Origin: a virus
DNA: 64,000 nucleotides
Direction: 5' to 3' (one strand)
Virus record (IMG/VR): IMGVR_UViG_3300024999_000057
Span: 1-64,000 of that record
How positions within the stretch are numbered: position 1 is the first letter of the stretch; every line of letters begins with the position of its first letter. The notes under the pieces were generated by a model. That model did no database searches. It was not told where the DNA came from and saw nothing but the letters and a program-made list of their open reading frames with translations. Both the position numbers and the translations under genes were made by a program. Below, piece after piece: positions 101 through 61,905 of this stretch.

Positions 101-200
101 TGGGGAGTGGTGGCGGGGTGAAAGTTTTAATGAGAGCCAGGCGCCCTTACCCATTCACTCACACGCTACGAAGTAAAATTCAGATGTACATATTTTTAGC

Positions 201-229
201 TTGACAGGAACCAAGTATTACTGTAGTCT
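201..229 (+). promoter_or_regulatory. sigma70-type promoter
   Basis: TTGACA-N17-TAGTCT upstream of RBS AAGGAGG and ATG 262; 14-bp motif variant at 178-191. Confidence 0.7.
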
Positions 230-261
230 ACAAATAGCCAAGACAAAGGAGGACCCAAAAA

Positions 262-627
262 ATGTACAAAATATCCAAAGGAGACCAATTCAATTCATGG
301 ACTGTCTTGTCCCAAGCACCAACAAGACCCAACAATATAAAGCACTGGCTCTGCCGTTGTACCTGCGGCACCACCAGGGAGGTCTCACAACACAACCTGA
401 TCCACAATAAGTCGAAGAACTGCGGCTGCTTCAGGGTGGTATCCGAGCACACCAGGAAGCTACTCTCAGAAGCTAACAAGGGAGTACCGAAAAGACCTAA
501 GGGTTATCAGCATTCTGAGGAAGCCAAGGCGAAGATGAAGGCGTCCCAGGTGGCTAGGAGGGAAAGAGAGCGTGTTGAAGCAGAACCACAGGTTTCCTCA
601 GGTAAAAATGCTTCGCACCTCTCCTGA
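262..627 (+). CDS. Homing-endonuclease-derived DNA-binding protein (Cys-rich N-domain plus NUMOD3-like motifs), no nuclease domain
   Basis: WLCRCTCG...NCGC domain also seen in 27504 HNH; HSEEAKAKM NUMOD3-like motif; strong RBS. Confidence 0.7.
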   Translation: MYKISKGDQFNSWTVLSQAPTRPNNIKHWLCRCTCGTTREVSQHNLIHNKSKNCGCFRVVSEHTRKLLSEANKGVPKRPKGYQHSEEAKAKMKASQVARRERERVEAEPQVSSGKNASHLS

Positions 628-684
628 GGAAACCTGTGGTCTGAACTAGGCGAACCTGTGGTCTGAACTAGGCGAACCTGTGGT
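585..684. repeat. 18-bp perfect inverted repeat (585-602/623-640) followed by 22-bp direct repeats (631-652, 653-674, partial 675-684)
   Basis: ACCACAGGTTTCCTCAGG / CCTGAGGAAACCTGTGGT; AACCTGTGGTCTGAACTAGGCG x2. Confidence 0.92.
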
Positions 685-755
685 TAATCCAAGATAACCA
701 AAACCCAGCGCAATCTCATACGGATCTTCCAACATTAAAATAGGAGCCAATTAAA

Positions 756-1151
756 ATGAAGACAATAATCCTGAATCACCCTGCAACTCCCGAGGAAGCT
801 ATCCAATTCACCCAGCACCTCCTCCAAAAGTTTCCTCTCAACCAAACCAACCAAATCAGCATCGAGTTTCTTCCCAGGAACTCCATTGGCAAAACTGCGT
901 ATGGTCGTTGCTACTATGTGAAGGCCAGGAACCTTAACGTCTGGATCAGGATTGCCCTTGGCGCCTCGAAGGAGAGGCGCCAGCTTCCTGATCTGCTTAA
1001 GACCATCGGGCACGAGTACTGTCACGCACTCCAACACGACCAGGGGAGAGATGCTTGCTGTGTCGAAGCTGATGAATTCGGATGGAGGGAGTCCAAAAAG
1101 TACCTGAATCTGACCGAAAAGCGAGATTCTGGGAGCAAAAGGGCTGCTTGA
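756..1151 (+). CDS. Small zincin-like metallopeptidase (HExxH)
   Basis: IGHEYCHALQ followed by downstream E (VEADEF), ImmA/IrrE/SprT-like pattern; RBS AGGAG. Confidence 0.7.
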   Translation: MKTIILNHPATPEEAIQFTQHLLQKFPLNQTNQISIEFLPRNSIGKTAYGRCYYVKARNLNVWIRIALGASKERRQLPDLLKTIGHEYCHALQHDQGRDACCVEADEFGWRESKKYLNLTEKRDSGSKRAA

Positions 1152-1236
1152 TGCTTTCCTGCTCAGATTCCATAACTGTTCATAAAAACTGAACGCAGCA
1201 CAAATCTGAACAGCGCCTCCCCCTCTTGTACCTGGG

Positions 1237-1302
1237 TTAATGCTTCATATATGGTACGTTAAGCCTAGATTTGGCCCTTAATGATTCATACATGATACGT
1301 TA
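1237..1302. repeat. Imperfect 25-bp direct repeat in non-coding region
   Basis: TTAATGCTTCATATATGGTACGTTA (1237-1261) vs TTAATGATTCATACATGATACGTTA (1278-1302). Confidence 0.85.
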
Positions 1303-1476
1303 GGGAATGTGGTATTTGGATCGGAGGTGGGAGTTGGTTTCGCTGAAAATTTTGAGATGGGGTTTGGGAGGTATATATGATTAGAAGGACTCTTCAGGCA
1401 AACCACAGGTTTCCTCAATTTCTCCCGCTTCGCGCTAATCCTGAGGAGGCTTGTGGCTGGGCTCGTGGCGCAATGT

Positions 1477-1527
1477 ATTCACATCCGAATTTTTTCTCTT
1501 GACAAACATTCAGAAGTGAATTAAGAT
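1477..1527 (+). promoter_or_regulatory. Early sigma70 promoter with operator-like 14-mer in the spacer and a second copy upstream
   Basis: TTGACA(1499-1504)-N17-TAAGAT(1522-1527); ATTCAGAAGTGAAT 1508-1521; ATTCACATCCGAAT 1477-1490. Confidence 0.85.
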
Positions 1528-1639
1528 GCAATTCATCAAGAGGTCTGCCCGCCGCTAACGGGAGAGGCCTTTGTTTTGGCCGGACAAATTCACGTAGCGG
1601 AGCGAAGTGCGTAAGCACATCTGAATTAAGGAGAACATT

Positions 1640-3152: not shown

Positions 3153-3662
3153 ATGGAAAAGGCTCGGCTGAACTCGCACGAGAAAGCAATAGCTCCTGAG
3201 GACATGCCCAAGAACAATCCGCAGCGAGCGATGTGGCGGTGTTCGGCTGAGATTCATGCTGAGATGCGTAAAAGGGAAGTGGAAGGCCACTACATCCCGA
3301 TGTATATAGCCGACAACGCAAAGTATTTCGCGGAGCACTCGTACCAAAGCGCTACCTACGTCTGGAGAGAATGCTTCGGATTTGTTACTAGCGAAGAAGA
3401 GGATCTTTGGGACCGTATGGATTATGGGGCCTCCATCAGCCAGCCTCTCAACATCGAGGCTCTCGATTTCGCGAGAGACCTCCAGAAGATCATGTGCACG
3501 AAACTGAAGTTGAAGGATTACGAGACGGCTTACCTGCTGTTCTTCTCCGGGTGCAGTGCGAAGCAAGTCGCTGAGGAGTTGGACCTGCCAATCCAGACGG
3601 TCTATAGCAGGAGAGCCAAAATCGCCAAGATCCTTCAGAAGCACTACTACGAGGCCAATTAA
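3153..3662 (+). CDS. Sigma70 region-4/LuxR-type HTH transcription regulator
   Basis: C-terminal SGCSAKQVAEELDLPIQTVYSRRAKI. Confidence 0.75.
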   Translation: MEKARLNSHEKAIAPEDMPKNNPQRAMWRCSAEIHAEMRKREVEGHYIPMYIADNAKYFAEHSYQSATYVWRECFGFVTSEEEDLWDRMDYGASISQPLNIEALDFARDLQKIMCTKLKLKDYETAYLLFFSGCSAKQVAEELDLPIQTVYSRRAKIAKILQKHYYEAN

Positions 3663-4301: not shown

Positions 4302-4537
4302 CCAAACAAAAGTTCTACGCAGTAGGCGCCCTGCACAAATCGGTGCTCGCTAGGATTAGTGGAGAGGAGCGTTCGATCCCACTCTCTTGGAGCGCCGGGA
4401 TGATCGGGATGATGCCTGTTTTCGATAACAGGCAAGCGGCTGAGGTGGAGGCGGGGGATAAGTTCGAGGTGGAGGAGTTTGGTGAGACGGATTCTTGCGT
4501 CATGATAAATTCAGATGTGAATTCAAAGGAGATTTAA
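4298..4537 (+). CDS. Hypothetical protein
   Basis: ATGA overlap, RBS GGAGG. Confidence 0.65.
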   Translation: MTKQKFYAVGALHKSVLARISGEERSIPLSWSAGMIGMMPVFDNRQAAEVEAGDKFEVEEFGETDSCVMINSDVNSKEI

Positions 4538-5413: not shown

Positions 5414-5555
5414 CTGCGACTTCACCATTTCCAGGCTACAGGCTCAACTGGAACTATCCAAGAAAAGGGAAGCAGAACTTGAGGAGTTGTTGAAGGACGC
5501 CCGGAAATTAGCAGAAACTTATCGCGTTTTTACGCGGAGAACTATTCAGAAGTGA
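5391..5555 (+). CDS. Small coiled-coil protein (54 aa, not in ORF track)
   Basis: RBS GGAGG; fills gap between 5413 and 5572. Confidence 0.5.
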   Translation: MMNCCLSNCDFTISRLQAQLELSKKREAELEELLKDARKLAETYRVFTRRTIQK

Positions 5556-5571
5556 TTAAAAGGAGTAGCAA

Positions 5572-6895: not shown

Positions 6896-6929
6896 GAAAG
6901 CCCTTGGGTTCTCCCAAGGGCCTTCTTTT
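6896..6929. terminator. Intrinsic terminator between convergent early operon and integrase
   Basis: GCCCTTGGG-TTCT-CCCAAGGGC followed by CTTCTTTT. Confidence 0.85.
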
Positions 6930-8166
6930 ATTCAAATTGCTCCCCAAATTTATCAGCATCCTTCCTCTTTTGCTCCCGATCCACGAATGAGTACTTCCTG
7001 CTCATGTTAATATCGCTGTGATCGAGGAAATCTGCGGTCTTCCTGATGTCCTGCGTAGCTTGGTAGTAGAAGGTCCCGGCTGAGTGCTTGGTGTCGTGGA
7101 ATCGCTTGTCTTCGAGCCCTGCTTCCTTTTTGACCTTCTGGAAAATGTTGTCCCAGTAGGATCTGGAGATGGGCACGTCCTTAGTCTCGCCGCAGAAGAG
7201 CCAATGGCTTTCCTGCTCCTTCTTGGTTAGTCCCTCCAGGTAGGAATCCAGCAGGCTCCTAAGCCGAGGGATCATGTCCAAGTAATGCGTGTAGTCGCCC
7301 CGCTTCCTCTTGCTTGCTGGAATGGCTAGAAGGTTTTCTTGGAGGTTCAGGTACTCCTTTTTTAATGAGCAGATGGTTTTCCTTCTGAGCCCTCCGAACG
7401 CCCCAAATCCAATTATTAGTGAAGCCCTTTTATCTACGAACTCCGCAGCCTCAAATAGCCTCGTCAATTCCCCCACCGTGTAAAACTTATCCTCCCTAGA
7501 ATCGTTCTCAGGCCACGCAGAAACCGCTTGAAGCTGATTATATTCCAGGTACCGCGTGTTGTCTGGAGCTACGATTTTGGACTTCACGAAGCAGTTGATC
7601 ATGTTGATGAGGGTTGACCTGGCCCGGTTCACGGTCGAGTTGGAGTGCTTCAGTTCATCCCTGCAGTAGACCATGTAGGACTGGAGGTGCTGAGGCAGGA
7701 GGTCCGCTACATAAACTGGGAGTCGGTCTGCTAACTGGCGAGGGAGGGGCTTGTCTGACTTCCAACTGAAATCTCGGAAGAAGGGGGTCAGGTTGCAGTT
7801 CAACCGCTGGACGTAGAAGGCACGGGTGTCCTCATTGGAGAGGCCTTGGAGGTAGGCGGTGTAAAGCTCTGTGGCGCGATCCCAGGTGAGCTTTTCCTTC
7901 TTCTGGTTCAGCTTGAAGCGATCATCTACGATCTGGCCCAGGACTTGGTTGAGCCGGTCTTCCGCCTGTTTCTTGTGGACGCTGATTTGCTCCGCTATTT
8001 GCTTCCCCTCGAAGGAGTAGGAAATGCTCCAGAATTTATCAGCCTCGTTTGTGGTGCTCCCGCATTTTTTGCAGGGAGGCAGCTTCTTAGGAGGGTCTGC
8101 AAATCGCTTCCTAGCACCACACTCGTAGCAGCGGACCACCTTAAAAATCGAACCTTTTTCGCGCAT
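6928..8166 (-). CDS. int: Tyrosine recombinase (phage integrase) with N-terminal zinc ribbon
   Basis: GLRR (R), FHDTKH (HxxR variant), LDH, SRKY catalytic Tyr; CYECG/CKKCG; start ATG 8166 with RBS AGGAGGG. Confidence 0.92.
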   Translation of the reverse strand: MREKGSIFKVVRCYECGARKRFADPPKKLPPCKKCGSTTNEADKFWSISYSFEGKQIAEQISVHKKQAEDRLNQVLGQIVDDRFKLNQKKEKLTWDRATELYTAYLQGLSNEDTRAFYVQRLNCNLTPFFRDFSWKSDKPLPRQLADRLPVYVADLLPQHLQSYMVYCRDELKHSNSTVNRARSTLINMINCFVKSKIVAPDNTRYLEYNQLQAVSAWPENDSREDKFYTVGELTRLFEAAEFVDKRASLIIGFGAFGGLRRKTICSLKKEYLNLQENLLAIPASKRKRGDYTHYLDMIPRLRSLLDSYLEGLTKKEQESHWLFCGETKDVPISRSYWDNIFQKVKKEAGLEDKRFHDTKHSAGTFYYQATQDIRKTADFLDHSDINMSRKYSFVDREQKRKDADKFGEQFE

Positions 8167-8187
8167 GGGGTTACCCTCCTTGACTGA

Positions 8188-8216
8188 AATATAATTCAGA
8201 CGTGAATGGAAGTCAA
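8188..8216 (-). promoter_or_regulatory. Integrase promoter with operator-like 14-mer in the spacer
   Basis: Minus strand TTGACT-N17-TATATT; ATTCAGACGTGAAT at 8194-8207. Confidence 0.8.
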
Positions 8217-8411
8217 GCCTTGGCTGCAATAATTGAGCAATAATTGAAATTTCCCGAGTGTTCCCTATATCGGTTAAGTGGCTGGATTTGGTACTTTTCT
8301 TAGCTGAGTTAAGTAGTTATCAATTCAGACGTGATTTTAAAAGGATGTGATTTAAGGAAGTCTTTGTAAATCTGTTGGTTAGAGGATTTGAGGCATTTCT
8401 GTTGATAAACC

Positions 8412-8441
8412 AAAGGCCCTCTTGAATCAAGAGGGCCTTTT
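8412..8441. terminator. Bidirectional terminator-like hairpin
   Basis: AAAGGCCCTCTTGA-A-TCAAGAGGGCCTTTT. Confidence 0.8.
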
Positions 8442-8494
8442 GATAACTGATTGATGTTATTACCTAATTTGGCTTTAACAAATAATTCATTTGT

Positions 8495-8533
8495 GAATCA
8501 GAATCCGTTGCCTTACCGCTTGGCGACACCCCT
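8495..8533 (-). tRNA. 5' half fragment of tRNA-Gln(CTG), attP core; not a complete gene
   Basis: Minus strand AGGGGTGTCGCCAAGCGGTAAGGCAACGGATTCTGATTC: acceptor 5' strand, D arm, anticodon loop TT-CTG-AT; similarity stops just after the loop. Confidence 0.9.
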
Positions 8534-8609
8534 ATTTCAACTACTTACGCCGTTTATTTTTCCTTAGCAATGGTCTTGCAATAATTGAATCCGAATTGCT
8601 GCCTAACAA

Positions 8610-8654
8610 AAAATGCCCTGCCTTGCTTCGGTGAGTCGCAAGATAGGGCATTTT
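8610..8654. terminator. Terminator-like hairpin downstream of xis
   Basis: AAAATGCCCT...AGGGCATTTT with internal stem. Confidence 0.65.
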
Positions 8655-8659
8655 GAAAT

Positions 8660-9004
8660 TCATGTCAATATTCTTTTTCGTCTTTTTTTAGGCACAGGGT
8701 CTTGCCTGGATGCCGGGTGAAGTGACTTCAATTCATCCAGGAGGATCACAGGATCAAGCTGCCATCTTCCCCTCGGACCTGTCTTCCAGCCAGTAAGTTC
8801 GCCAAGTTCCAGCTTTCCCTTCAACCAGCGGTCGGACTTGCTTATTTTTAGAGAGGCTTGCTTTAGGCCAATCAGCAGGGGCTCTGGCTTGTTAGGGCTG
8901 AGGGCTTCGATGGCCGCTTGTAGAATTTTTAATGTCGCTGCGTGTACCTCGGCTTGGGCCTGAAGGAGCCCGAGGAGCGCTGCTGGGTCTGCCTGGATCT
9001 GCAC
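8660..9004 (-). CDS. Excisionase-like winged HTH protein
   Basis: LIGLKQASLKISKSDRWLKGKLELGELTGWK..RGRWQL; next to attP; GTG 9004 with GGAGG (start uncertain). Confidence 0.7.
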   Translation of the reverse strand: MQIQADPAALLGLLQAQAEVHAATLKILQAAIEALSPNKPEPLLIGLKQASLKISKSDRWLKGKLELGELTGWKTGPRGRWQLDPVILLDELKSLHPASRQDPVPKKRRKRILT

Positions 9005-9064
9005 TGGAAATGCCCTCCTGCAATAGTCTTGCAATTATTGAACTGGATTTTTAAACGATTACAG

Positions 9065-9217
9065 TTACTTCCAAGGCCACTTGAAGATCGGAGTCGAGTA
9101 GTTCTCCCTGAAAAACTTCCACGAGGCAAAGTGCGACCGACAGCAGAAGTCCAACTGGTACTTCTTGGAGTAGATCCCCTTGTGGTTGAACTGTGAGTGG
9201 CACCAGGCGCAGATCAT
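9065..9217 (-). CDS. Small TRASH-like Zn-binding protein (50 aa, not in ORF track)
   Basis: MICAWCHSQF...DFCCRSH; RBS AGGAG. Confidence 0.65.
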   Translation of the reverse strand: MICAWCHSQFNHKGIYSKKYQLDFCCRSHFASWKFFRENYSTPIFKWPWK

Positions 9218-9238
9218 TTCTAGTCTCCTGAGCTGATC

Positions 9239-9412
9239 CTACTCCTCGCCTTCGTAAGTAACAAGTTGGAAGCACCTGCGTGGATTCTTGATGCAGGCCA
9301 CTTCAGGCGATTCGGTTGAGCACTCGGAGTGCGACTTGCAGTAGAAGCAGCACGTTTTATTTTCCATGAATGGGTCGAAGGGACAGCACGAGGATTTGCA
9401 ACTTGCGATCAT
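9239..9412 (-). CDS. Small Cys-rich protein (57 aa, not in ORF track)
   Basis: MIASCKSSCCPF..CCFYC..C..C..C; ATGA overlap with upstream gene. Confidence 0.6.
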   Translation of the reverse strand: MIASCKSSCCPFDPFMENKTCCFYCKSHSECSTESPEVACIKNPRRCFQLVTYEGEE

Positions 9413-9591
9413 TCCCCACCTCCGTACAAATCTTTAGCCCACCCAGAGCCCTTCAGGATAAAAGTTGGTGAAGAGACGGCGCGGTGCATGAAATTACCAC
9501 AGGCGCACATTTGAAATCCCACGAAGCCGTAGGCTTCTCGGACCTCCCTTGTTTTACTGCATTTGCTACATTTGTACTCGTACAGAGGCAT
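9409..9591 (-). CDS. FmdB-family zinc-ribbon regulatory protein
   Basis: MPLYEYKCSKC...CACG...FILKGSGWAKDLY. Confidence 0.88.
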   Translation of the reverse strand: MPLYEYKCSKCSKTREVREAYGFVGFQMCACGNFMHRAVSSPTFILKGSGWAKDLYGGGE

Positions 9592-9674
9592 TTTGGTAAA
9601 TCTCCTATTCGGATATGAATTGTTCGGGTAAACGAAAGGCCCCGCTAAAGCCCTCGATACACCCTTTGATGAGG

Positions 9675-9709: not shown

Positions 9710-9723
9710 ATTCACATGTGAAT
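9710..9723. promoter_or_regulatory. Perfect palindromic operator between divergent promoters
   Basis: ATTCACATGTGAAT. Confidence 0.8.
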
Positions 9724-9760: not shown

Positions 9761-9821
9761 TAAATTATTAATGAGGGAGAAGTATGCCCTCAACAATTCA
9801 GATGTGAATGGGAGAAGAGAA

Positions 9822-10205
9822 ATGGTTAAAACGATTGGCCTGGACAAACTGAGGAAGGACAACAGCAACTTGTGGCGCATAGAGGGGGTGGGCCGCACAC
9901 TGATGGAGGAGTTGAAGAAGGTGAAGTTTAAAAAAGTCAAACCTAACCACATTGATGATCTGAGAAATTGGGTGGCAGTAACAGGGTACGGTGAGACGAA
10001 CCCTTACACAGAACTGGACAAGAAACTAGATTTGGAAAAGTTTGCAGACTCCCTTCCTGAGGAGTACCAGGAAATTTTCAATCTCTTCCTGGAGAATCTG
10101 ACTGTGCCTGAAATAAGTGTCGAATTGGGCATCCCGAAGCCTACGCTGTACTCGAAGCTGCGGTTCATAAATCAGTTGTACAAGGAATTTTACCTGGAGG
10201 AATAA
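9822..10205 (+). CDS. Sigma70 region-4-like HTH protein, candidate late transcription activator
   Basis: SLPEEYQEIFNLFLENLTVPEISVELGIPKPTLYSKL; heads the packaging operon; start 9822 or 9771. Confidence 0.75.
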   Translation: MVKTIGLDKLRKDNSNLWRIEGVGRTLMEELKKVKFKKVKPNHIDDLRNWVAVTGYGETNPYTELDKKLDLEKFADSLPEEYQEIFNLFLENLTVPEISVELGIPKPTLYSKLRFINQLYKEFYLEE

Positions 10206-15211: not shown

Positions 15212-15240
15212 AGTATTCATATGTGAATTAAAAATTAGAA

Positions 15241-18518: not shown

Positions 18519-18537
18519 AATCTATTCAGATGTGAAT

Positions 18538-22306: not shown

Positions 22307-22352
22307 GTAGTTGATTTCATTCAACTTTTAATTCAGATGTGAATTCAAAATC

Positions 22353-30174: not shown

Positions 30175-33100
30175 GTGAAAATACTTCTGGATAAAGAACT
30201 GATTCGCTACACCTCGCTTCAGGATGAAGTAGAAGTCTCAGGCACAACCGTGGTTGATGCCTTAGAAGACCTTTTTGGTAAATTCCCGCAGTTCCTGGTT
30301 TTCCTCACGGTGTATAAAGGCGCCGAAGCCGAGAAGACCTCGATCAAACTGAACGGCGAATACCTGTTCGATCCGAAGGACCTTCATCGGGTTGTTTGCG
30401 CTGAGGATGTTATTGAGTTTGGTAGGGATGTCCCTGAGGGTGAGAAGGGTGGGCTACAGATTTTAGCTGCGGTGGTTATTGCAGCAGTCAACACCTTGAC
30501 CATCAAGAATCCCTATGTATATCAGTTTGCTATAGCACTAGCCATCGGAGGTGCTGCCGACTTAATAATCGGCTCCCCCAAGCTCCCTACATTCGACTCA
30601 GGCAACTCCACCTCAGCCACCTACACCTTCTCTGGAATCAAGAATACGACGGTCTCCGGAACCCCGATCCCGATTGTCTACGGCAGGCACCGGGTTGGCG
30701 GGCACGTCCTGAACGCTTACGTGGATGTTCTAGGCAAGTACAGTTATCTTTATGTCCTGCTTGGTATTGCAGCAGGACCAATAAATAAGATTGAGCCTGA
30801 CAGCTTCGAAATCAATGAGCGTAAAGCAAACAATTTTCAGGACATAGCATTTTACTATAGAAAGGGGAATCAGTTTAATCTGCCTCCTTCGGACAACCCA
30901 CTCATACAACCAAAGGAAGTGAAGTTCCTAGAGGAAGTGCCCTATACAAGTTTTGATGGTACCTATCATAAATTTGTATTACCCAACGCAGGAGATGTAG
31001 ATGAGGTCTCTTTCGCGGTGTCCTACTGGGGAGGTACGTTTACCGCGCACATAGGTATATACAACTACAACGAGACTATTTTACTATATGAGACTACCAG
31101 TTCACTTTATAATTATGATAACCGAGTATGTTACTATGTTAATCACAATTTCGGAAGTATTCTTTCTGGTAATTTAGTAGTAAAAACTCGACTGGAACTT
31201 ACTGCGGTATACACACCAGAAGATGCAAAGATAATTGATTACGTGAGCGTTAACACTTCGGAAACTACCCTAGATAATTTAGCAGTAATGAAGGGGTTCA
31301 ACCAGATAGAGAATTCAATTAGCTTCAACCAGCTTATCCCTGACGAAGACCCTGACAACCAAAACATTGGAGCCATAGTCTCCACAGAAACTCCTGTGGA
31401 ATCTGTTAAAATTAGATTGAATGCGCTAGGTTTCTACTCGAAAAGCGGCAATGAGCACGCCGAGGTCCAATTTAAGGTCTACACCAAACAAAGCAATGCG
31501 ACTGACTGGAGCCTCTACAACTTCGCGGCAAATAAAGAGTCTGGGGTAGAAGATAAGGATTGGGACTACTTCAAAACTGACAAGCCATCCAAAACTGAAG
31601 TCTCCGTAGCGAGAACCATCACCCTACCCAGCATCGACTACTACGACATCAAGATCGTTAGAGTAACCCCGAGGAACGCTTCAGACATTACGATCTCAGA
31701 CGACATCTACTTAGCCGACCTTATAGAGATATCATCGGAAGGCTTGGCTTACCCTTGGGTCGCACTATTAGGAGCCAGGATCAGAGCTACGGATCAAATC
31801 TCAGGGAGCCTCCCCACGATCACGTCGATCATCGAAGGCTCCTGTGTGTCTCTGCCGACAGGCTACGTCAGCAAGTACGACCCTCTGACCAACCGCTCGA
31901 TCCGCTACTGGGAAGACACTTGGGATGGCACCATGAGCACCGATTCCGACCCCGATAACGTCATCTGGACCGACTCCCCCATCTGGTGCCTCTGGGACCT
32001 CTTGACCAACCCGATTCACGGCCTCAACGAGCATTTTAGTATTAAGCCGGAAAAGAAGAATCTGGTTCTGGCTAACCTAGTGCAGATGAGTTACTACTGC
32101 GACCAATATTTGTTTGAGGACGGTACGGTTGCTGCCTCCTACAACGAGGTCGATGATGAAGATGTGTTTCCTCGGGTAAGGTATTCGCTGAACCTGGTCA
32201 TCGACCAAAGCAAGTCAGCGAGAGAATGGGTCAACGTTATTTGCGCCTCGATGAACGCGTTGCTCTTCCAAGCAGATGGGATGGTCTACCTCGATGTAGA
32301 CCAGCCGAAGAACATCACGCAGATTTTCAACATGAGCAACATCAAGGATTATTCGCAGAGTTGTGCTTCGCTCAGAGCGATCCCCAATACTTACGAGGTT
32401 AGCTTTTACAACAAGGACAAGGACTACGATCAAGATTCGTTCTTGGTTGAGACTCCTGAGTACCAAGCAAGTGACTTAACCACAGAAGAACGCAAGCAGA
32501 CCCTGAGTTATATCGGGGTCACCGACGAGCGCCAGGTTAGAAATCTTTTGTTTAGGACGATGAACGTAGCGAGCAACACCGGGACCATCGTTAGTTTTAA
32601 GACCGGCACGGAAGGCCTGATGAGCACCGTATTTTCCGTGGTAGGCGTTCAACACGACGTACCCCAATGGGGCTCGGGTGGGCTTATTCAGGAAGTGGAA
32701 GATGCCGGATCTTCCTGGCTGGTCACCTTGAGTGATTCCTTCGTCTACACCTTACTTGAAGGAGATAACCTCTGGGGCCAATTGGCAATCAGCATCTCGA
32801 ACGCAGGAAAGGTTCCAGTTGAAATCGGAGTGGTTGAGCCTGGGGTTAACGGGACATATTCAGAAGTGAATATTTCTAAGACCTACGTGGATTCTGAGGG
32901 AGCAACCCAGAACTTCACTCCTGTAGTCGGAGCAACATACATCTTGGGCCAAGTCACCAACACGGTGAAACCATTCAAGATTCTGAATCTTAAAAGGGAC
33001 TCAGACGAGCTTACCGAAGTCACAGCCGTTGAATACTTAGAAGACGCTTACTCGGATGACGTCACTAACATGCCGGTCGTGGCAATGCCTTCGTTCAGCC

Positions 33101-39253: not shown

Positions 39254-39285
39254 GAATTCAGATGTGAATCCTTGGAGGAGCCAGA

Positions 39286-43999: not shown

Positions 44000-44019
44000 T
44001 CAAATTCAGATGTGAATTT

Positions 44020-44051
44020 AGAGCCGCTCTTGAATTAGAGAGCGGCTCTTT
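44020..44051 (+). terminator. Intrinsic terminator
   Basis: AGAGCCGCTCT...AGAGCGGCTCTTT. Confidence 0.8.
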
Positions 44052-45282: not shown

Positions 45283-45854
45283 ATCCCGAACTTATAAAAA
45301 CCTGTGCGGTCCTCTGCGACCAAAGCTATTCAGATGTGAATCCAAATTTCGTCACTGTGGACGATTTAAGGTACGGGGTTTTTGAAACAGAGCACGGAAA
45401 AATAATCTGCATCCGGGGAACGGACAATCTGGAGAATTGGGGCGTGAACGCGAATGTTTTGCCCGCGAAGTCTTGTGGTGGTTTTCTAGCCCACAAGGGG
45501 TTCATAAAAGCCTACCGAGAACTCTGCTCGGGTGGGATGCCTACGACCAAAAATCCTTCCGTCATAGCAACTGGGCATTCTCTTGGAGGCGCCCTGGCAA
45601 CTCTGCTAGCAGAGCACACAGGGTGCAAATTAATTACTTTTGGATCACCAAGAGTTTATTGGAGATTTGGAAAAGCGCCTAAATTGGATTACATCAGGAT
45701 AGTAAGAGACGACGATCCGGTTCCAGAAGTTCCCAAGTTCCTCTACAGGCACACCCAGGAACCTCTTGTATTGAAAGACGGTGACCACAGGCATTTGCAA
45801 GTCAAGGATCATTTTATGAAGTCGTACCTTGAGGCTTTAAAGGAGTTAAAATGA
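45279..45854 (+). CDS. Class 3 lipase
   Basis: IRGT, HKGF, TGHSLGGALA, TFGSPRV, DPVPEVP, DH. Confidence 0.92.
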   Translation: MNPELIKTCAVLCDQSYSDVNPNFVTVDDLRYGVFETEHGKIICIRGTDNLENWGVNANVLPAKSCGGFLAHKGFIKAYRELCSGGMPTTKNPSVIATGHSLGGALATLLAEHTGCKLITFGSPRVYWRFGKAPKLDYIRIVRDDDPVPEVPKFLYRHTQEPLVLKDGDHRHLQVKDHFMKSYLEALKELK

Positions 45855-48631: not shown

Positions 48632-48697
48632 TTATGCTTGGTGCTCCTGTGGTGTTTGAAATGAAAGGCTGGCAGTTCTCCACCAGCCTTTCTAAAA

Positions 48698-49676: not shown

Positions 49677-49690
49677 TCTGACAAGCTCCT

Positions 49691-50526: not shown

Positions 50527-50653
50527 CCTCTTCCTCCTCTCCTTCCCAACACCAGGCGTCTTCAGGAATCACCTGGTCCAAATTCAGTGTGCATTCGCCC
50601 CCGCCGTAATCGACGGGGGCCATTCTTGTGTACGGGCAATGCGAGTAGCACAT

Positions 50654-52216: not shown

Positions 52217-52224
52217 TTTGGCTC

Positions 52225-52650
52225 CTATTCAGATGTGAATTCATCTGGGCGAAATTCAGAAATAATAAGTTCCGCCCTTGGGTTTTCCTTGTCGATTCCG
52301 CCGAACTTGTACTCGATCTCCGGGATGAACGTGTAGTTATCGTCCTCCAGGAGCTTCAGTTCAATCAGCGCGTCATCTGCGAATTTCTGTACCACCGCTC
52401 CGATGTTTGCCAGATCGAACAGTCGCTTCGTCGAGTAGAAAATCGTGTAGGTGAATTTGTACGGAGGCTTGCCTAGCTTGCCCTCAGCCTTCTCGACTGC
52501 CTTCGCTACGATTTCCTTGTACAAGATCTTCAGCGCGTTGCTCTCGTGGTGCTGCCAGTTGCGGTAATTATTTAGTCCGAGCGAATACTTCTTCCCTGGC
52601 TTCGTCTTCCTTGGGATGGTCACCGTTAGTGGTAATATCAGTTGATACAT
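52225..52650 (-). CDS. RusA-like Holliday junction resolvase
   Basis: DLANI..KFADDAL...DDN...DKENPR. Confidence 0.85.
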   Translation of the reverse strand: MYQLILPLTVTIPRKTKPGKKYSLGLNNYRNWQHHESNALKILYKEIVAKAVEKAEGKLGKPPYKFTYTIFYSTKRLFDLANIGAVVQKFADDALIELKLLEDDNYTFIPEIEYKFGGIDKENPRAELIISEFRPDEFTSE

Positions 52651-53146
52651 ACTTGTACGCCTTGCCCAGCTTGATTCTACTAATTGTGGTTTGGGTTACC
52701 CCAAATTGTTTAGCTAGATCCCTGCCGGTTCCGTTGATGGAGAAATCTGATTTTTTAATTATCAGCACTTGCTCCAAGGTTAGTTTGGTGTTGAAGTTTC
52801 TCTCGCCGGTAGCACTCCTATTTCTAGTAACTCTGTCGTTCACGTTGTCTTGAGTTGTCCCTATTAGAAGATGTTCGGGGTTAACACAAAGAGGGTTGTC
52901 GCACGTATGCCTAACAACTTTGCCCGTAGGATCTTCACCCTTCAGAAAAATAACGGATAGTCTGTGTGCAAGCCTGTATTTTCCCCAAAGTTTGTAGAAT
53001 CCATACCCGTTACTATTAATTGTCCCTCTCCACCGCCAGCATTCATCCGGCCCTCTTTGCTCGATCAACGTCTTGAATTTTTCTACAGTGTTACTTGGTC
53101 GCCCTACTTGCCCTCCAGGGTTCCTAATTCTCTTCGCTATCCTCAT
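52568..53146 (-). CDS. HNH homing endonuclease with C-terminal HTH
   Basis: ECWRWRG..GYG..AHR..RHTCDNPLCVNPEHL..N; LAKQFGV; start 53146 after AAGGAG. Confidence 0.92.
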   Translation of the reverse strand: MRIAKRIRNPGGQVGRPSNTVEKFKTLIEQRGPDECWRWRGTINSNGYGFYKLWGKYRLAHRLSVIFLKGEDPTGKVVRHTCDNPLCVNPEHLLIGTTQDNVNDRVTRNRSATGERNFNTKLTLEQVLIIKKSDFSINGTGRDLAKQFGVTQTTISRIKLGKAYKYVSTDITTNGDHPKEDEAREEVFARTK

Positions 53147-54659
53147 CTCCTTTAATTTCCACTGGCAGAAATCGCCAGCATCCGTCTTCTCTCGCTTCGA
53201 TCCGGTGCCCCTTGTATTTATAAGGCACCATCTCAAGCATTTCAGGTTCCCACGACGATTTCCGCCGTTTCTTGCTCATCACACCCTTGGCTACGATCCA
53301 GTTCCCAACTCCATTGTGCTCAAAATAATACTTCATGTTTTTGTCGCAGATCGCACAGATCCCGGCGCCATGTGAAGGAGCATTTGTGCCCCCACAAAGG
53401 GTGCATTTTTCCAGCCGGGTGTGTTTTCCATGCAGCCTGTATCTTCGCCAAGGGGCCTTGTCCCAGAGGATCTTCCTACCAACACCGATCTTGGTCCCGC
53501 CTACTTTCAAGTAGAGGAATTCCAAGAGCTTGCCTTTCGCCGGCTTGATGTTGTTCAGGAGAGCGTTGTCCCTTCCCGCGAAGCTGAAAGCTACTCGGAA
53601 GAGATCCCCGTTGAACCAAACTAAAAACCCTTTGGCGTTCCCGCCTACGTGCCAGAATCGTTCTACGATTCCCACGGTCACCCTGACCTCAACCACATGA
53701 GATTCCCCGGTTCTGGCGGTATCCTGGTCGGTCAGCGTGAGGTACTCGCAATCCGAGTGCTCCATGACCTTGACGACTTCGCCCAAAACTTCCTCTTCCC
53801 GAAATGCGAGGCCCACATAATTGGGCGTGATCTGTGTCAAGAGGTTGTTGTCTTGAAACCTGCGCAGCTTCTCTACTCGCTCGGGAAACGGGGTCGTGGG
53901 CTTGCCATTGAGGGTCAAGGCAAACTCCTTCAGATTGTCGAAGTAATCGACTGGGTGAAACACGGTCCTTCCTGAATTCAACCGCCCCGCGTACCCCGTC
54001 AGGGTAAATCGTGGAGTTCCGATGTACTGCATATCCACGGGAAGTAATGGCTTAATTCCAACTAATTTTCCTGCTTCACACTCAAATGACCTAGTTGATC
54101 TGGGCTCCTTGGAAACCACCCCCAGCCTCATGTCGGGGGCCATAACAGCGGAGATGGCGACCGGGTAGTTCAACGCGGCGAAGCTTGTCTGGAGGGCCTC
54201 AGGTGCCTTATAAATTTCGAAGGTGTTAACCACACCAAGGTCGAGCGAGGTCTGAATCTCCATGACGGGCAATCCTTTGGTAAAACTTTTTGAAACTAGC
54301 GAGAGGTAAAACTCGCGGTCGATCCTGCTGGTCTTCGCTAGAAATCGAATTAACTCTGACTCCCTCGTGCGAGTCACAGTTTTCCGGTTGAAGAACCTGA
54401 CGACTTCCAGAAATCCACCGAATGATGCCTCAGAAATTTCTAGTTCCGGGACTGAGTGGTACCTGGAGTCGTCGATGGCCTTGAACCGAAAATTCAACAT
54501 GCAGAACCAGCAGGCGAAAGTGAGGAGCCATTCGGATTCCTCTGGAAGCTTCAGAACCCCCTCAGCGAATTGCCTCCGTTTTTCCTTAGGTGACCTGAGT
54601 TCAACCAAGGAATTCCTGAAGTTCAAAACTTCTTCGATGTTGGAAAGTTCGATTTTCAT
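53124..54659 (-). CDS. Large protein, possibly degenerate ATP-dependent DNA ligase fold, with C-terminal Zn finger
   Basis: Ligase-like layout without KxDG; CTLC...CAIC. Confidence 0.5.
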   Translation of the reverse strand: MKIELSNIEEVLNFRNSLVELRSPKEKRRQFAEGVLKLPEESEWLLTFACWFCMLNFRFKAIDDSRYHSVPELEISEASFGGFLEVVRFFNRKTVTRTRESELIRFLAKTSRIDREFYLSLVSKSFTKGLPVMEIQTSLDLGVVNTFEIYKAPEALQTSFAALNYPVAISAVMAPDMRLGVVSKEPRSTRSFECEAGKLVGIKPLLPVDMQYIGTPRFTLTGYAGRLNSGRTVFHPVDYFDNLKEFALTLNGKPTTPFPERVEKLRRFQDNNLLTQITPNYVGLAFREEEVLGEVVKVMEHSDCEYLTLTDQDTARTGESHVVEVRVTVGIVERFWHVGGNAKGFLVWFNGDLFRVAFSFAGRDNALLNNIKPAKGKLLEFLYLKVGGTKIGVGRKILWDKAPWRRYRLHGKHTRLEKCTLCGGTNAPSHGAGICAICDKNMKYYFEHNGVGNWIVAKGVMSKKRRKSSWEPEMLEMVPYKYKGHRIEAREDGCWRFLPVEIKGDEDSEEN

Positions 54660-56890
54660 TGCTGAATTGATGTCGTTCCGTCCTCGTGTTTAGTAGCTCT
54701 GATTATGCTCGTGTAGGTCATCGGCAGCGCCAGTTCGGAGTGAGCGATAATGGCGATGCAGCGGCCCTGCTCCTTCAGGTAGCCCAGCACCTCAAAAAGT
54801 CCAGCCTTCCCCTCTTCATCCAACGACCCGAAGATTTCATCGAGGCAAAGCACGTTGAACGAAGAGGAGCCTGTGGCTTCCAAAATTTCCAACGTAGCGA
54901 AGAGGCAGGACATCTTGACCCTCGCCTTCTCACCCTCCGACCAGTTCGCCCACTTGACCGTCTTGTGGCTGTCGGTGACCGTGAATTGGACCTCACCATC
55001 TTCATCGAGATAGAAGACGCACGCGATTCTTCCCGAGGTGATCATCTCCGAATATTTCCGGATCAGGATGTTGAAGCTCCTCAGGAACCTGTCGATTTTC
55101 CTGACTCGGTAACCCTTCGGCCCGAGGATTCCCAACCAATTCCTGATGTCCTCCAAGGTACTTTCTGCCTGAAACAACTCATTTCTGGAAGCGTCCAATC
55201 GGAGCAATAAATCCCGGTTGTTTTCCTCGACCTGACGATTAAGTTCTTTTCGGGCTCTCGATAAAGCGTTGTGGTCCTTGGCCTTGGTTACTTCAGTATC
55301 AATTTGGGAAACCTCGTTTTTTACTGAAATCAACTTAGAAACCAATTCGCCCAACTTCAAATCAATAGCCATCAAAACCAGAGGATCAACCTCAACCGCA
55401 GGACCAACTTCAGCTTTCAACCGGTTCAACTCGAACTGCCTCTGCTCGAACTGCAGGTGCTCCATCCCGATTAATACCGCTTCCTGCAAGTTCAATTGAA
55501 TCCGACGCTTGCGATCCTCGAAGCAACTCACATCAAGCTGAGCTTGATTCCCGTCGATCTTGGTATCCGGGTTGGCTTCGAGCTTTTCAAGCTCCTGAGT
55601 TTTCCTGGTGATTTCCTGCCAAGCCTTCTGGATGAGGCGGTACTTTGAGAGGGAGGACTCGCATTTTTCGATGAGAGCATTGTCGGCTTCGATCTGAGCA
55701 GAAAGCTCTTCGATCTGCCCTTCAAACTGCGTCGAGTCAACCGAATGTCCGCAGGTAGGGCAGGCACAGGACTTCGCGGAATTCTCAAGGCTCAGGCGCT
55801 CCGATCCCTTCTGACTTCGGGCAACCTGCGTCTTCGTCTTGAGGTTCTCGATCTTCCTCAGTTGCTCCTCAGCGAACTCTGCTTCAACTTCAGGAGTTTC
55901 CAATTTGGAAAGTTCTTCCCTCAATGGAAGCAGCCGCTCGATCTGAGGCTTGGCCTTTTCGTACCTAGCGAGAACCCCTTGAGCCTCTTGAAGCTTGGAT
56001 TCGGTGAACCTGAGTTCTTCCTGAAGCTTAGTTGCTCTGCTTTGTGCGTCTTCCTTCGATAAAGAGGGGAGTTCGAAGGTTTTAATCTCGTCTTCTAACT
56101 CCTGAATCTTCTCTTGTGTCGCTTGGTTCGCCTCGGCTTTTTTCAATAGCTCTGTGAGATCGCTTCGATCTCTGGAGAGTTCCAGTTGCTGAGCTTTCAA
56201 GTTATCAACTTCAACCCAAAGATTCTTCAGTCTGGATTCAAGCTCAGCAACCTCGACTTCCTCAAGTTCAGGCTGAGGATGAACCACGCCCTGCTCCATC
56301 AACTCGATCTGCTTCTGGAGCATCAGGATCTTGCCATGCTTTCCTGCGAGAGCCTTTTCCTTCTCCTTCATCCGGTCGAATTCAGCGTCGAGTTCATCCA
56401 GGCGATTGACTCTGGAGATGAACTTTTTCCTCTCGCCATCGGAGGAGGATTCGAGGAGATTCAAGGAGCTTTTCGGGCTCTGGTAAACGAGATCCACGAA
56501 AGTTGAATAGTCGGTTTCGAGGACCTCTTCGAGGAACTTCAGGTTGTCCGGGATTCGCTTCAGGTGCCGCTTGTGCTTCGCTCCGTTGACCTCTTCGTAA
56601 ATCTCGATCTCACCGGTCTTCTTCGAGTTCTTGACATACCACTCGGAAGCGCCCTTGGTGAACCAGATTTCGATCTCATAAGGCTGGCCTGTGATCTCGT
56701 TATTCACGTCGTCTACTTTGGTGCCCTTCGGGTTCTTGTTGAACAGGCCCTGGATCAGCGTCAGGAAAAGGCTCGTCTTGCTGGCGCCGTTGTTGCCGAT
56801 GACCGAGTGAATTCCATTCTCGAACGTGAAGTCGAGGTACTTGTAGGCGAAGCAGTCTCGGGCCACTACTCGGGTGAACTCGACTACCAC
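54656..56890 (-). CDS. SbcC/Rad50-like recombination ATPase (T5 D13/T4 gp46 type)
   Basis: GNNGASKT, CPTCG hook, SEGE signature, LDEIFGSLD, IIAH. Confidence 0.95.
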   Translation of the reverse strand: MVVEFTRVVARDCFAYKYLDFTFENGIHSVIGNNGASKTSLFLTLIQGLFNKNPKGTKVDDVNNEITGQPYEIEIWFTKGASEWYVKNSKKTGEIEIYEEVNGAKHKRHLKRIPDNLKFLEEVLETDYSTFVDLVYQSPKSSLNLLESSSDGERKKFISRVNRLDELDAEFDRMKEKEKALAGKHGKILMLQKQIELMEQGVVHPQPELEEVEVAELESRLKNLWVEVDNLKAQQLELSRDRSDLTELLKKAEANQATQEKIQELEDEIKTFELPSLSKEDAQSRATKLQEELRFTESKLQEAQGVLARYEKAKPQIERLLPLREELSKLETPEVEAEFAEEQLRKIENLKTKTQVARSQKGSERLSLENSAKSCACPTCGHSVDSTQFEGQIEELSAQIEADNALIEKCESSLSKYRLIQKAWQEITRKTQELEKLEANPDTKIDGNQAQLDVSCFEDRKRRIQLNLQEAVLIGMEHLQFEQRQFELNRLKAEVGPAVEVDPLVLMAIDLKLGELVSKLISVKNEVSQIDTEVTKAKDHNALSRARKELNRQVEENNRDLLLRLDASRNELFQAESTLEDIRNWLGILGPKGYRVRKIDRFLRSFNILIRKYSEMITSGRIACVFYLDEDGEVQFTVTDSHKTVKWANWSEGEKARVKMSCLFATLEILEATGSSSFNVLCLDEIFGSLDEEGKAGLFEVLGYLKEQGRCIAIIAHSELALPMTYTSIIRATKHEDGTTSIQQ

Positions 56891-59364: not shown

Positions 59365-59601
59365 TTAAGCCACCTCGTCTTCCGGCAGATCCTTGTCACA
59401 GCCGAACAAGGTGTCCATCCCGTACTCCTCATTGGCTTCGCAGGCAATGTCGCCCAGGATCGAATCAATCTCTTCGAGAGCATCGGTGTCGATCTCGTCG
59501 AAATTGCGAAGGCCACATAGCCGGTCGAGGACGTAGGCCCGAGCCTCTTTGAGCCGCTCCGGGTCGATTGCGAGATGATAAATTTTGAATTCTTCGTTCA
59601 T
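59365..59601 (-). CDS. Small acidic protein
   Basis: RBS AAGGAG before ATG 59601. Confidence 0.7.
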   Translation of the reverse strand: MNEEFKIYHLAIDPERLKEARAYVLDRLCGLRNFDEIDTDALEEIDSILGDIACEANEEYGMDTLFGCDKDLPEDEVA

Positions 59602-59614
59602 TTTGGATCTCCTT

Positions 59615-59917
59615 AAATTAGGCGGCAGACTTCCACGCGGTCTGCCAGCGCTGCCTGAATAACTACCGTAGAGTACAGGCTCCTCCCCTTTCACACGCTC
59701 AGGTCACTCATGTTAGGCTTGGGTACAACTACCGTAGAGCACAGGTTTGAGCTTCAAGCTCTCAGCAGCTGAGAACCTCAGAGGCTTGCGCTCCAAATCC
59801 GGTTGTACCAGCTACCAGCCTTAGCCAAATTAGGCCATGCCCTCAATGACGTGCTACTTGTCCGCGCTGCTTGCACCTCATGTTCCGAGGGAGAGGATCG
59901 GCGGGGTGATCTCGTTC
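59615..59917 (-). ncRNA. Candidate structured non-coding RNA or leader
   Basis: About 300-bp GC-rich gap with hairpins and a 19-bp duplication (59661-59679, 59727-59745). Confidence 0.35.
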
Positions 59918-60127
59918 CTACAGAAAGGCCTGCTTCATTTTCTCAGCGAGCCTGGTTGCTTCCAGACTTTCACCAAGGTGCTTCTCGCGATCATTCATCA
60001 GATCTGAAATCTTGGTTTCGATACCATCTGCGATAGCGTCGTGCTTCGAGGAATGAAGTTCGAGTTCCTTGACAGCCTTCTGGAAGGTACCCATAATTTC
60101 GTCGATGGTTTTACTTTTGAGGAACAA
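59918..60127 (-). CDS. Small coiled-coil protein
   Basis: RBS AAGGAG; TIDEIMGTFQKAVKELE. Confidence 0.7.
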   Translation of the reverse strand: MFLKSKTIDEIMGTFQKAVKELELHSSKHDAIADGIETKISDLMNDREKHLGESLEATRLAEKMKQAFL

Positions 60128-60249
60128 TTTATTCTCCTTTCCTGGTTATTTTTTAATCCATCTCCAAGCTACAACTACTCCGCAAGCGAAGCCACCTGAG
60201 CCAATAATCAAACACCCGATCACGAATGTGCTTACATCCACCAGCACAC

Positions 60250-60633
60250 TCATTTCACGGTGTCCTCATCGGAGCAGCCCACGAGTTCCGGCTTGTATCC
60301 ACAGAAAACCTTGACTTCCCTGAAGCCACCATTCTGCTGCGGGACCATGCCTACGGAGGTGACGAGGCCATTGAAGTTGCTGTCGGAGGGCCTCACGTTG
60401 ACGAGGGCGCCACGCTCTTTCGTCAGCACGATGTTGCCATCCGCTTCCTTGCGCTGAACAGGCCATTCCTTCTCGAAGTACCTCTTGGCGTTGATTTCAG
60501 CCAGCGTGCGCTCCTCTGCGGTCAGTGCATGGACGTTGGCTACGGTCGCTGCGACTTTTTCATCAGCGGACTTTTTGCAGCCTGCGGAAAATGCAGCTAC
60601 CACGATCAGCGCGAAAATTACGAGTTTGTTCAT
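60250..60633 (-). CDS. Lipoprotein
   Basis: MNKLVIFALIVVAAFSAGC lipobox. Confidence 0.8.
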   Translation of the reverse strand: MNKLVIFALIVVAAFSAGCKKSADEKVAATVANVHALTAEERTLAEINAKRYFEKEWPVQRKEADGNIVLTKERGALVNVRPSDSNFNGLVTSVGMVPQQNGGFREVKVFCGYKPELVGCSDEDTVK

Positions 60634-60895
60634 TTTTTGGTCTCCTTTTTAATTTTTGGTTTTAGTTCCTGGTGCTCAGTATGTGCATCATGAGCATGTT
60701 GAAAGTTGCTTGAGAGTAATCCCCTTGGATCAGCGCCACAAGTCCTGCGATCCCAGACATGATTGCCACAACCTGCGTAACCACTACCCAACCCGCTACG
60801 AGTAAATCTTTGGTTTCTTGTTTCAAAATTTTTACCTCTCCCAGAACAACTCCGCAGGCTCAGAGGAGGGAAAGGCCTGCGGAGTTGTTCACTTT

Positions 60896-61825
60896 TTAGA
60901 AAACGATGTTGTCGAATTCGGCGTCTTGTGCTCCTGCACCCAAGCCACCAGAATTGCCAGCCCCTTTGCCCTCGATACTCATTCCGGCAGGCAGAGCTTT
61001 CTGCGCTTCTTCCTTGCGGGTAGCCGAGATCAGCTTGCGCTGAGTCTCGAAGCCCCTCACGGACTCGTCAACCGCCTTAACGGTCTCGGTCAGCAGCTTG
61101 CGCTCTTCGAGGGGATACGGGCGATCCTTCTGGAGGATTGGGGTTATGATCCAGTAGACGTTCGTGCCGTTGACCTGCTGCTCGGTGGTCAGGAGGGTCG
61201 GGAAGAAGTACAGCGGGAACTTCCCAGCCGAATCCAGGTACTGTTTGAAGGGCAGGAAGCTGGTGCCCTTGAAGTACATGATCGCGCCTTTTGTTTCCTC
61301 ACCGATCTTCACCTCGACGAAGACCTGATACTGGCAAGTGCATTTTTCCGCCTTGTCAACGTCCTTCGCACGGCGTGGGCATTTCCCGGACATGCACTCG
61401 AAGCCGAGATTGTCGCCTGCGGCTTTCTCGCCGGGATCGAGCACGAGCTGGCTCTGACAAATATGCTTCTTCACGTCCTTGACTTTGGTGCCATCCGGGA
61501 AGAAAGAAAACTTGGTCCCGAATTTGACCACGGTGATCTCCGGGTTAGCCCCGCAGTCGATGCCGATGTCTTCAACAATCGTGTTTTTCCCGTCCTGCTT
61601 GGTGATCTGGTTGTACACGAAGTTCCCCATCGGAACGGTGTTGCCTTTGGCGTCTTTAATCGGGAACTTGTTGATCTTGAGCGTCGGGGTCTTATCGAAC
61701 GAAGCGTTGGTGGCCTGTCCGGTCGCACCAAGTATTTCCCGGATTTCGTCAGGAGTCATTCCTTCAAAAAGGTCTGCCAGATTTACAGATGCTGCTGCGT
61801 TAGTTTTTTCAGTTGCTTTTGCCAT
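60896..61825 (-). CDS. Putative single-stranded DNA-binding/annealing protein
   Basis: OB-like core with Cys cluster, flexible acidic tail ending EFDNIVF. Confidence 0.65.
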   Translation of the reverse strand: MAKATEKTNAAASVNLADLFEGMTPDEIREILGATGQATNASFDKTPTLKINKFPIKDAKGNTVPMGNFVYNQITKQDGKNTIVEDIGIDCGANPEITVVKFGTKFSFFPDGTKVKDVKKHICQSQLVLDPGEKAAGDNLGFECMSGKCPRRAKDVDKAEKCTCQYQVFVEVKIGEETKGAIMYFKGTSFLPFKQYLDSAGKFPLYFFPTLLTTEQQVNGTNVYWIITPILQKDRPYPLEERKLLTETVKAVDESVRGFETQRKLISATRKEEAQKALPAGMSIEGKGAGNSGGLGAGAQDAEFDNIVF

Positions 61826-61905
61826 TTTGAGATTTTCCTTAAATAATTTGAGATAGTTGGGTTCCCTCCCTGATTTTTGAAATTCATTTGTGAATTGTTG
61901 GTGGA

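Follow-up and report, generated by a model that had tools for sequence, protein, structure and literature searches.

A dispersed ATTCA-N4-TGAAT palindrome in a T5-like phage: a candidate operator network and a possible MarR-fold binder

In the temperate mycobacteriophages L5 and Bxb1 (Cluster A), dispersed stoperators have been proposed to silence the genome as a whole by blocking both the initiation and the elongation of transcription (PMC9283540, PMC4351075). The 21-nt repeats of TLS/T1, like the repeats of the Cluster O mycobacteriophages, are still listed as unexplained (PMC11447400, PMC4351075). In the present study a dispersed element of an uncultured T5-like phage was analyzed, the palindrome ATTCA-N4-TGAAT of IMG/VR record IMGVR_UViG_3300024999_000057. 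The record comprises 102,669 bp, is classed as linear and has an estimated completeness of 91%; its first 64 kb, the stretch of DNA from which the analysis started, are called the window. The whole record is labelled G000, and the relatives that were compared with it are labelled G001, G002, G006 and G007. The palindrome was found inside sigma-70 promoters, directly upstream of Shine-Dalgarno (SD) sequences and in front of terminators. We think that it represents the operator network of one phage-encoded dimeric regulator, a reading to which a probability of roughly 0.55 is assigned.

Number, placement and conservation of the sites

The exact 14-mer ATTCAGATGTGAAT was present eight times in the window, always on the plus strand and at all eight positions that a sequence-only reading had listed. 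It was absent from 100 shuffled sequences, in agreement with the expectation of far less than one copy by chance. In the whole record it occurred 14 times (12 copies on the plus strand, two on the minus strand; none after shuffling). When only the arms had to match, 15 copies were detected in the window, compared with 0.13 expected, and 32 in the record (none after shuffling; the expectation for these two counts is about 0.1-0.2). A further 15 copies in the record had one mismatch in an arm, versus about 2.5 by shuffling, which brings the total to about 45 sites over about 100 kb. Every variant with one or two mismatches that had been reported for the window was recovered (Table 1), and two more were found at 15657 and 58243. 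Intergenic sequence makes up 10% of the genome and yet contains 26 of the 32 perfect-arm copies (binomial P about 1e-20). The arms are invariant by the definition used for counting, and the centre is GATG in 12 copies and GAAG/CTTC in seven; divided by their centre, the perfect-arm copies are split about 18 to 10 between the strands.

Four sigma-70 promoters contained the site in one single register, TTGACA-N3-site-TAnnnT, namely P1499, the integrase promoter 8216(-), P64417(-) and P96796(-). The filling of the -35/-10 spacer that had been claimed for the sites at 1508 and 8194 was thus borne out by the reading of the promoters. In six or seven promoters, including P1499, P9703(-), P9733(+), P64417, P64521 and P92820, the end of a site was situated 6-9 bp upstream of the -35 box, with a T-rich run in between, and the proposed location of the site at 9710 between the divergent P9703(-) and P9733(+) was verified. 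The sites of P1499 and P64417 are paired at distances of 31 and 30 bp, respectively, which corresponds to about three helical turns. The positions of the promoter sites fall outside the RNAs that are made from their own promoters.

A second group of 15 sites was found to end 10-16 nt upstream of a start codon, directly before the SD sequence and often 0-5 nt past the stop codon of the upstream gene. Relative to the gene, both orientations are represented, and their proximity to ribosome-binding sites is as had been described. At three places (18524, 22331 and 44004) the site follows the stop codon of a virion gene and precedes a strong intrinsic terminator, composed of a GC hairpin and a subsequent U run, and here too the described order of stop codon, site and terminator was seen. 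At genome positions 72707-73571, single genes are bordered by three units that are almost identical and about 31 bp long (site, GGGAGG, TAGAA, ATG).

Relative G001 (82.5 kb) is colinear with this phage at about 80% nucleotide identity, and its capsid protein is 84% identical. Its sites were found at orthologous positions, with the promoter registers preserved and even the three copies within genes retained. The arms stayed the same in G001 and the centre drifted, for example from CATG to TATC at 9710 and from TATG to CGTG at 15215. A dimeric protein that reads the two arms would be expected to leave such a pattern.

Table 1. Positions of the sites, of the promoters that contain them and of the integrase gene in the window.
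Position	Strand	Feature	In G001
178..191	+	Two-mismatch site, 9 bp 5' of a TTGACA box	
1477..1490	-	One-mismatch site, end 8 bp 5' of the P1499 -35 box; 31 bp centre-to-centre to site 1508	
1499..1527	+	Sigma-70 promoter P1499: TTGACA, 3 bp, site 1508-1521, TAAGAT	Kept
1613..1626	-	Two-mismatch site adjoining the SD of gene 1640-2122	
4509..4522	+	Exact site immediately past stop codons; SD and ATG (4538) follow, 15 nt 3'	
5544..5557	+	One-mismatch site; its TGA is the stop codon of the upstream gene; 14 nt before ATG 5572	Lost
6928..8166	-	Tyrosine integrase gene, under the site-bearing promoter	
8188..8216	-	Integrase promoter: TTGACT, 3 bp, site 8194-8207, TATATT	Kept
8323..8336	+	One-mismatch site, int-attP region	
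8485..8498	+	Perfect-arm site adjoining the tRNA-Gln-like part of the putative attP	
9607..9620	+	One-mismatch site; minus-strand gene 9409-9591 starts 15 nt downstream of it	
9710..9723		Perfect palindrome common to divergent P9703(-) and P9733(+), 6 and 9 bp from the -35 boxes	
9796..9809	+	Exact site; the sigma region-4-like gene 9822-10205 has its ATG 12 nt downstream	
15215..15228	+	Perfect-arm site; gene 13835-15211 stops 3 nt before it	
18524..18537	+	Exact site, 5 nt past the major capsid stop, directly 5' of an intrinsic terminator (about 18538-18565)	
22331..22344	+	Exact site between the gene 21215-22306 stop and a terminator (about 22353-22384)	
32858..32871	+	Perfect-arm site within the large tail gene, open reading frame 30175-33846 (own gene caller: 31018-33846)	
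39256..39269	+	Exact site between a stop (2 nt away) and the ATG at 39286 (16 nt away)	
44004..44017	+	Exact site, 4 nt past a stop, directly before a terminator (about 44020-44049)	
45328..45341	+	Exact site within the lipase-like gene 45279-45854	
52227..52240	+	Exact site, in inverted orientation to the minus-strand genes; gene 51212-52216 starts 10 nt downstream of it	
61882..61895	+	Perfect-arm site 56 nt 5' of gene 60896-61825 (minus strand)	

Proposed mechanism and candidate binder

In the proposed mechanism, a dimer of the MarR type would bind the palindrome and would occupy the spacer and the region from -45 to -58 of the main sigma-70 promoters. Once bound, the dimer, or in some cases a pair of dimers spaced by 30-31 bp, would keep RNA polymerase out or trap it, leading to repression. 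The promoters affected would be those of the left and right early operons, the integrase gene, the gene block beside the phage attachment site (attP), a gene for a 669-amino-acid protein and the operon that starts the packaging genes. The same protein would bind the copies that lie at gene junctions and in front of three terminators, which would most likely serve as orientation-independent roadblocks or as punctuation for read-through transcription, like the L5 stoperators. For the copies at gene starts the same protein is the simplest reading, since they have the sequence of the operator. The earlier proposal that one dimeric protein controls early, late and recombination functions together is in accord with the sites at early, integrase and structural promoters and at junctions, and silencing by roadblocks is a step that we infer. 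The parS-style variant of that proposal found no support among the proteins scanned, as explained below.

Our own gene caller, a crude one, counted 168 genes, and the products of about 105 of them were searched against Pfam or PHROGs. The best candidate for the binder is encoded outside the window; no binder is recognizable within it, in keeping with the earlier statement that a CI-like repressor cannot be recognized there. The candidate is a protein of 118 amino acids (genome 89853-90209) that matched the Pfam family MarR_2 with 35.5 bits (cut-off 27). Its family profile matched solved MarR proteins of the PDB at 1e-8, and all top PDB matches of its AlphaFold model (predicted local distance difference test score, pLDDT, 95.9) were MarR, MexR, MepR or SlyA. 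Upstream of its ATG are two one-mismatch sites, at distances of 41 and 59 nt, and its terminator is followed by a perfect site. The protein is 88% identical in G001, with an unchanged recognition helix, and the ortholog in G006 has the same helix, PQGTVSRN(V/I)(K/R)KL. In G002 no member of the MarR-like family was found at E values up to 1. The MarR-like protein and the promoter element thus occur together in G000, G001 and G006, and both are missing in G002; this co-occurrence is suggestive of a link between candidate and motif, and it is correlative only. That the MarR-fold protein is indeed the binder of the motif is a tentative assignment, for which we see a little less than an even chance.

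A profile search revealed a tandem paralog (90301-90651) just upstream of the candidate. The two MarR-fold genes are downstream of a sigma-70 promoter at 90717, which has only a half-site, 8 bp 5' of its -35 box; a strong terminator follows the second gene, and no clear promoter was seen between the paralogs. A second palindrome, AAAGTGA-N4-TCACTTT (AAAATGTGA-N4-TCACTTT), was present in seven copies at genome positions 97001-102160 and in 12 copies in G001 (48356-55114), also directly 5' of the SDs of small early-region genes. The shorter form GTGA-N4-TCAC occurred eight times in the genome, once at 49455, compared with 1.45 times in shuffled sequences. The tandem MarR-like paralog may use this palindrome as its operator.

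Three of the helix-turn-helix (HTH) proteins that had been named as possible binders from the sequence did not fit. The sigma-like 169-amino-acid product of 3153-3662 has no counterpart in G001, which keeps the motif. The recognition helix of the sigma region-4-like product of 9822-10205 has diverged in G001, where the motif is identical, and the product of gene 262 is a NUMOD3 endonuclease-type protein. The products of 3153-3662 and 9822-10205 are small, and both have a sigma-70 region-4 HTH. The latter may be a late-gene regulator, because its gene immediately precedes the small terminase gene and is retained in both G001 and G002.

The record encodes a large terminase, a 1,420-amino-acid tape measure protein, NrdD, SbcCD-like proteins, a tyrosine integrase and a serine resolvase. 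With those of T5-like Vibrio, Salmonella and Escherichia phages, its major capsid protein shares only about 29% identity. The genes from 262 to 46036 are on the plus strand, broken by a minus-strand block at 6928-9591, and those from 46111 to the end are on the minus strand; as G001 spans the junction of both record ends, the gene order is circularly closed. The serine resolvase (225 amino acids, genome 93384-94061), which is present beyond the tyrosine integrase, is kept in G001 and G006. The 669-amino-acid protein (window 62342-64000, continuing to genome 64351) matched phrog_1735 at 8.5e-283; its gene is downstream of tandem promoters with four sites, and the protein is 93% identical in G001 and absent from G002.

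The minus strand of window positions 8485-8545 resembles a tRNA-Gln(CTG) in its 5' half, as far as the anticodon loop, and runs into the site at 8485. Because it is tRNA-Gln-like and situated beside the integrase gene, this segment is likely to be attP. The overlap of the site with the att segment, which had also been reported, agrees with a reading of the flank that was made by eye only. As a T5-like phage with an integrase, the phage appears to be temperate, and the presence of the integrase and of the putative attP suggests that the network could silence a prophage. A Cro-like shut-off of the early promoters during lytic growth is equally possible.

Gene-start palindromes in relatives and alternative explanations

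Relative G006 (63.7 kb, L066-L069) shares synteny with the right arm of this phage at 40-50% protein identity, and G002 (113 kb, L026-L031) is complete and has terminal repeats. The fraction of copies of the own palindrome that abut an SD and a start codon was 53-57% in G000, G001 and G006 and 37% in G002, compared with 10-15% at random. The dispersed palindrome of G006 is TGCGACATGTCGCA (TGCGA-CATG-TCGCA), with 29 copies, 24 of them exact; most abut an SD, and the promoters are devoid of it. Seven to eight sigma-70 promoters of G006 have AWTCACATCTGCAT about 7 bp 5' of TTGACA instead, which is plainly homologous to ATTCACATCTGAAT-tttttatc-TTGACA of this phage. A further repeat family of G006 is built around GCGTCC/GGACGC. 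In G002, about 40 copies of aCTTCCGA-N3/4-TCGGAAGt were located between open reading frames and beside tRNA genes, most densely at 99-112 kb and never in promoters. The promoters of G002 have plain AT-rich upstream regions and lack the promoter element; a variant, cgTTCCGCTGGTCGGAAcg, was seen just 3' of the -10 box in several consensus promoters. A comparison of the palindrome positions between the lineages revealed no positional orthology. Among the genomes compared, gene-start palindromes are a trait of the clade with lineage-specific sequences, and in G006 and G002 they are separate from promoter control.

These differences bear on the idea that the motif is the box of a host transcription factor that is used by the phage. 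This is hard to reconcile with the quite different palindromes in relatives of like architecture, from which a phage-encoded, co-evolving specificity is expected, and with the finding that enrichment of the motif within IMG/VR was confined to this narrow clade. The nearest Escherichia coli boxes, the ARG box TGAAT-N4-ATTCA and the MetR box TGAA-N5-TTCA, have everted half-sites, and a host box is altogether improbable. A megablast search of 10 kb against GenBank phages yielded no matches, a search for a host or a prophage with the capsid protein yielded a single distant contig of a metagenome-assembled genome, and scans of viral and metagenome sequences for divergent carriers of the motif or of the MarR-like protein returned only close relatives and, in addition, G006 and G007.

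The copies at gene starts might alternatively belong to a separate, clade-wide system that acts on mRNA or on the initiation of translation by way of another factor; they could be hairpins for RNA processing or stability, or operators of translation, and might merely have their sequence in common with the promoter operator. The high SD-abutting fractions fit such a system, and so do the palindromes of G006 and G002, which are GC-rich and missing from promoters and which, in G002, allow a centre of 3 or 4 nt and flank tRNA genes. The second gene-start palindrome of G000 points in the same direction. On the other side, the motif as RNA reached only -2 to -3 kcal/mol (z about 0), no better than shuffled sequences, and of 13 transcribed arm variants with one mismatch two keep G-U pairing and none is compensated. 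Both orientations occur before genes, which would result in a GAUG, GAAG or CAUC loop. The same 14-mer occupies promoter positions that are not transcribed, three copies precede terminators and not SDs, and no RNA-binding candidate was detected among the scanned proteins. A search of Rfam with the motif gave no match. An RNA-level system of its own is therefore regarded as unlikely. It appears well supported that the sites act at the DNA level and are bound by a protein, because of the promoter copies, the weak RNA hairpin, the uncompensated arm variants, the lack of an Rfam match and the conservation in G001; our confidence in this is higher than in the operator network as a whole.

Several findings weigh against one operator network with a MarR-type regulator. 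The gene-start palindromes of G006 and G002 differ from that of this phage, do not occur in promoters and would fold into strong hairpins as RNA, and G002 has them without any MarR-like gene. The recognition helix shared by G000 and G006 fits the promoter element that both have in common, and not the dispersed palindrome of G006. About half of the sites are 10-16 nt before a start codon, a position that the roadblock model does not require. The GAAG-centred copies are co-oriented with transcription in nine of nine cases, for which a symmetric dimer offers no explanation, and the bias of the exact GATG form towards the plus strand (12 of 14) is likewise left without one. The link between protein and motif consists of three lineages with both and one with neither. 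Another binder, for example the double-HTH protein g86247, is possible, because the scan covered only part of the proteins. As the gene-start palindromes of the distant relatives lack promoter copies, the gene-start class may have a role beyond the operator model. It is conceivable, though clearly less probable than the plain operator network, that the clade has a gene-start system in which each lineage uses its own 5-4-5 palindrome and a co-evolving factor controls genes singly, and that in this phage the system has been fused with promoter repression of the MarR type. Such a system would be a palindromic, Gram-negative counterpart of the start-associated sequences of mycobacteriophages.

Two further explanations were weighed. 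The repeats could be boundaries of gene cassettes, integron- or PeSL-like, which serve as short substrates of recombination. A methylase-like gene (72736-73218) is indeed located between two units of site, SD and ATG, and G001 has a single unit and no gene at this place; in addition, a deletion of 76745-78430 in G001 ends at a site. Nevertheless, G000/G001 breakpoints (13/94) were no closer to sites than gene ends in general were (42/278), and no enrichment of sites before accessory genes was found (P = 0.63). The copies embedded in promoters are also left unexplained, so that cassette boundaries are improbable, only marginally less so than a host box. Alternatively, the sites could organize the DNA as parS-style centromeres, nick sites or packaging signals, as might be thought from the genome-wide distribution, from the 12 of 14 exact copies on one strand and from the strand-specific nicks of T5-like phages (PMC3517423). 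The known nick consensus is asymmetric and always on one strand (PMC3517423). An identity with nick sites was rejected because of the symmetric arms and the strand distribution of the exact (12 plus, two minus) and of the perfect-arm copies (about 18 to 10). The parS-style reading is without support because none of the about 105 proteins scanned was of the ParB type, and the exact promoter register points to transcription. A role in DNA organization is accordingly the least probable of the explanations.

Comparison with known systems

Dimers of the MarR family bind short dyads, such as GTTGA-N5-TCAAC in the case of MexR, commonly overlap -35/-10 boxes and regulate their own genes. The candidate resembles MarR, MexR, MepR and SlyA in its fold and its Pfam match. 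It differs from the family in its size (118 versus 140-150 amino acids) and in the about 45 sites over 100 kb instead of one or two at one operon, and a role of a ligand is not evident. One repressor with many operators scattered over about 94 kb and over unrelated operons is represented by C1 of phage P1; the P1 operators are asymmetric 17-mers at promoters, whereas the sites of this phage are palindromes, many of them at junctions without a promoter.

The start-associated sequences (SAS) of Cluster K are reportedly asymmetric and overlap the ribosome-binding region. As in Cluster K, a conserved short motif is found just 5' of many translation starts (SAS are contrasted in PMC4351075), but here it is a palindrome 5' of a normal SD that is also present in promoters and before terminators. 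The 17-bp dyad repeat of Cluster O (TGTTCGGNNNCCGAACA) is similar in its more than 30 dispersed copies, its invariant inverted arms around a variable centre with one preferred form, its mostly intergenic placement and its orientation, which is not fixed (PMC4351075). It has not been reported inside promoters and is not tied to translation starts (PMC4351075), in contrast to the sites of this phage, which lie within sigma-70 promoters and about half of which abut an SD.

With the stoperators of L5 and Bxb1 the network shares dozens of copies, some at early promoters and most in short intergenic gaps of early as well as late operons (PMC9283540, PMC4351075). The analogy that had been drawn to them is apt, given dozens of dispersed intergenic copies in addition to promoter copies; on sequence evidence only, the counterpart of a stoperator over the early promoter is a site that fills the spacer in four sigma-70 promoters. 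Stoperators are asymmetric, oriented with transcription and bound by a monomeric two-domain repressor, while the arms of the present sites form a perfect dyad, both orientations occur, the candidate is of the MarR fold and the host lies outside the mycobacteria.

If one small repressor indeed acts at about 45 sites, this would be a compact and testable control of a whole genome outside the mycobacteriophages, and the exact promoter register would provide ready-made repressible promoters. The lineage-specific palindromes before ribosome-binding sites of related phages hint at a layer of gene control without an established mechanism. Taken together, dispersed operators are already known, and what is new is a putative operator network in a T5-like phage that is palindromic, integrated into promoters and adjacent to SDs and for which a MarR-fold candidate exists. 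The L5 stoperators are its closest functional analogue, and the Cluster O dyad is its closest formal analogue.

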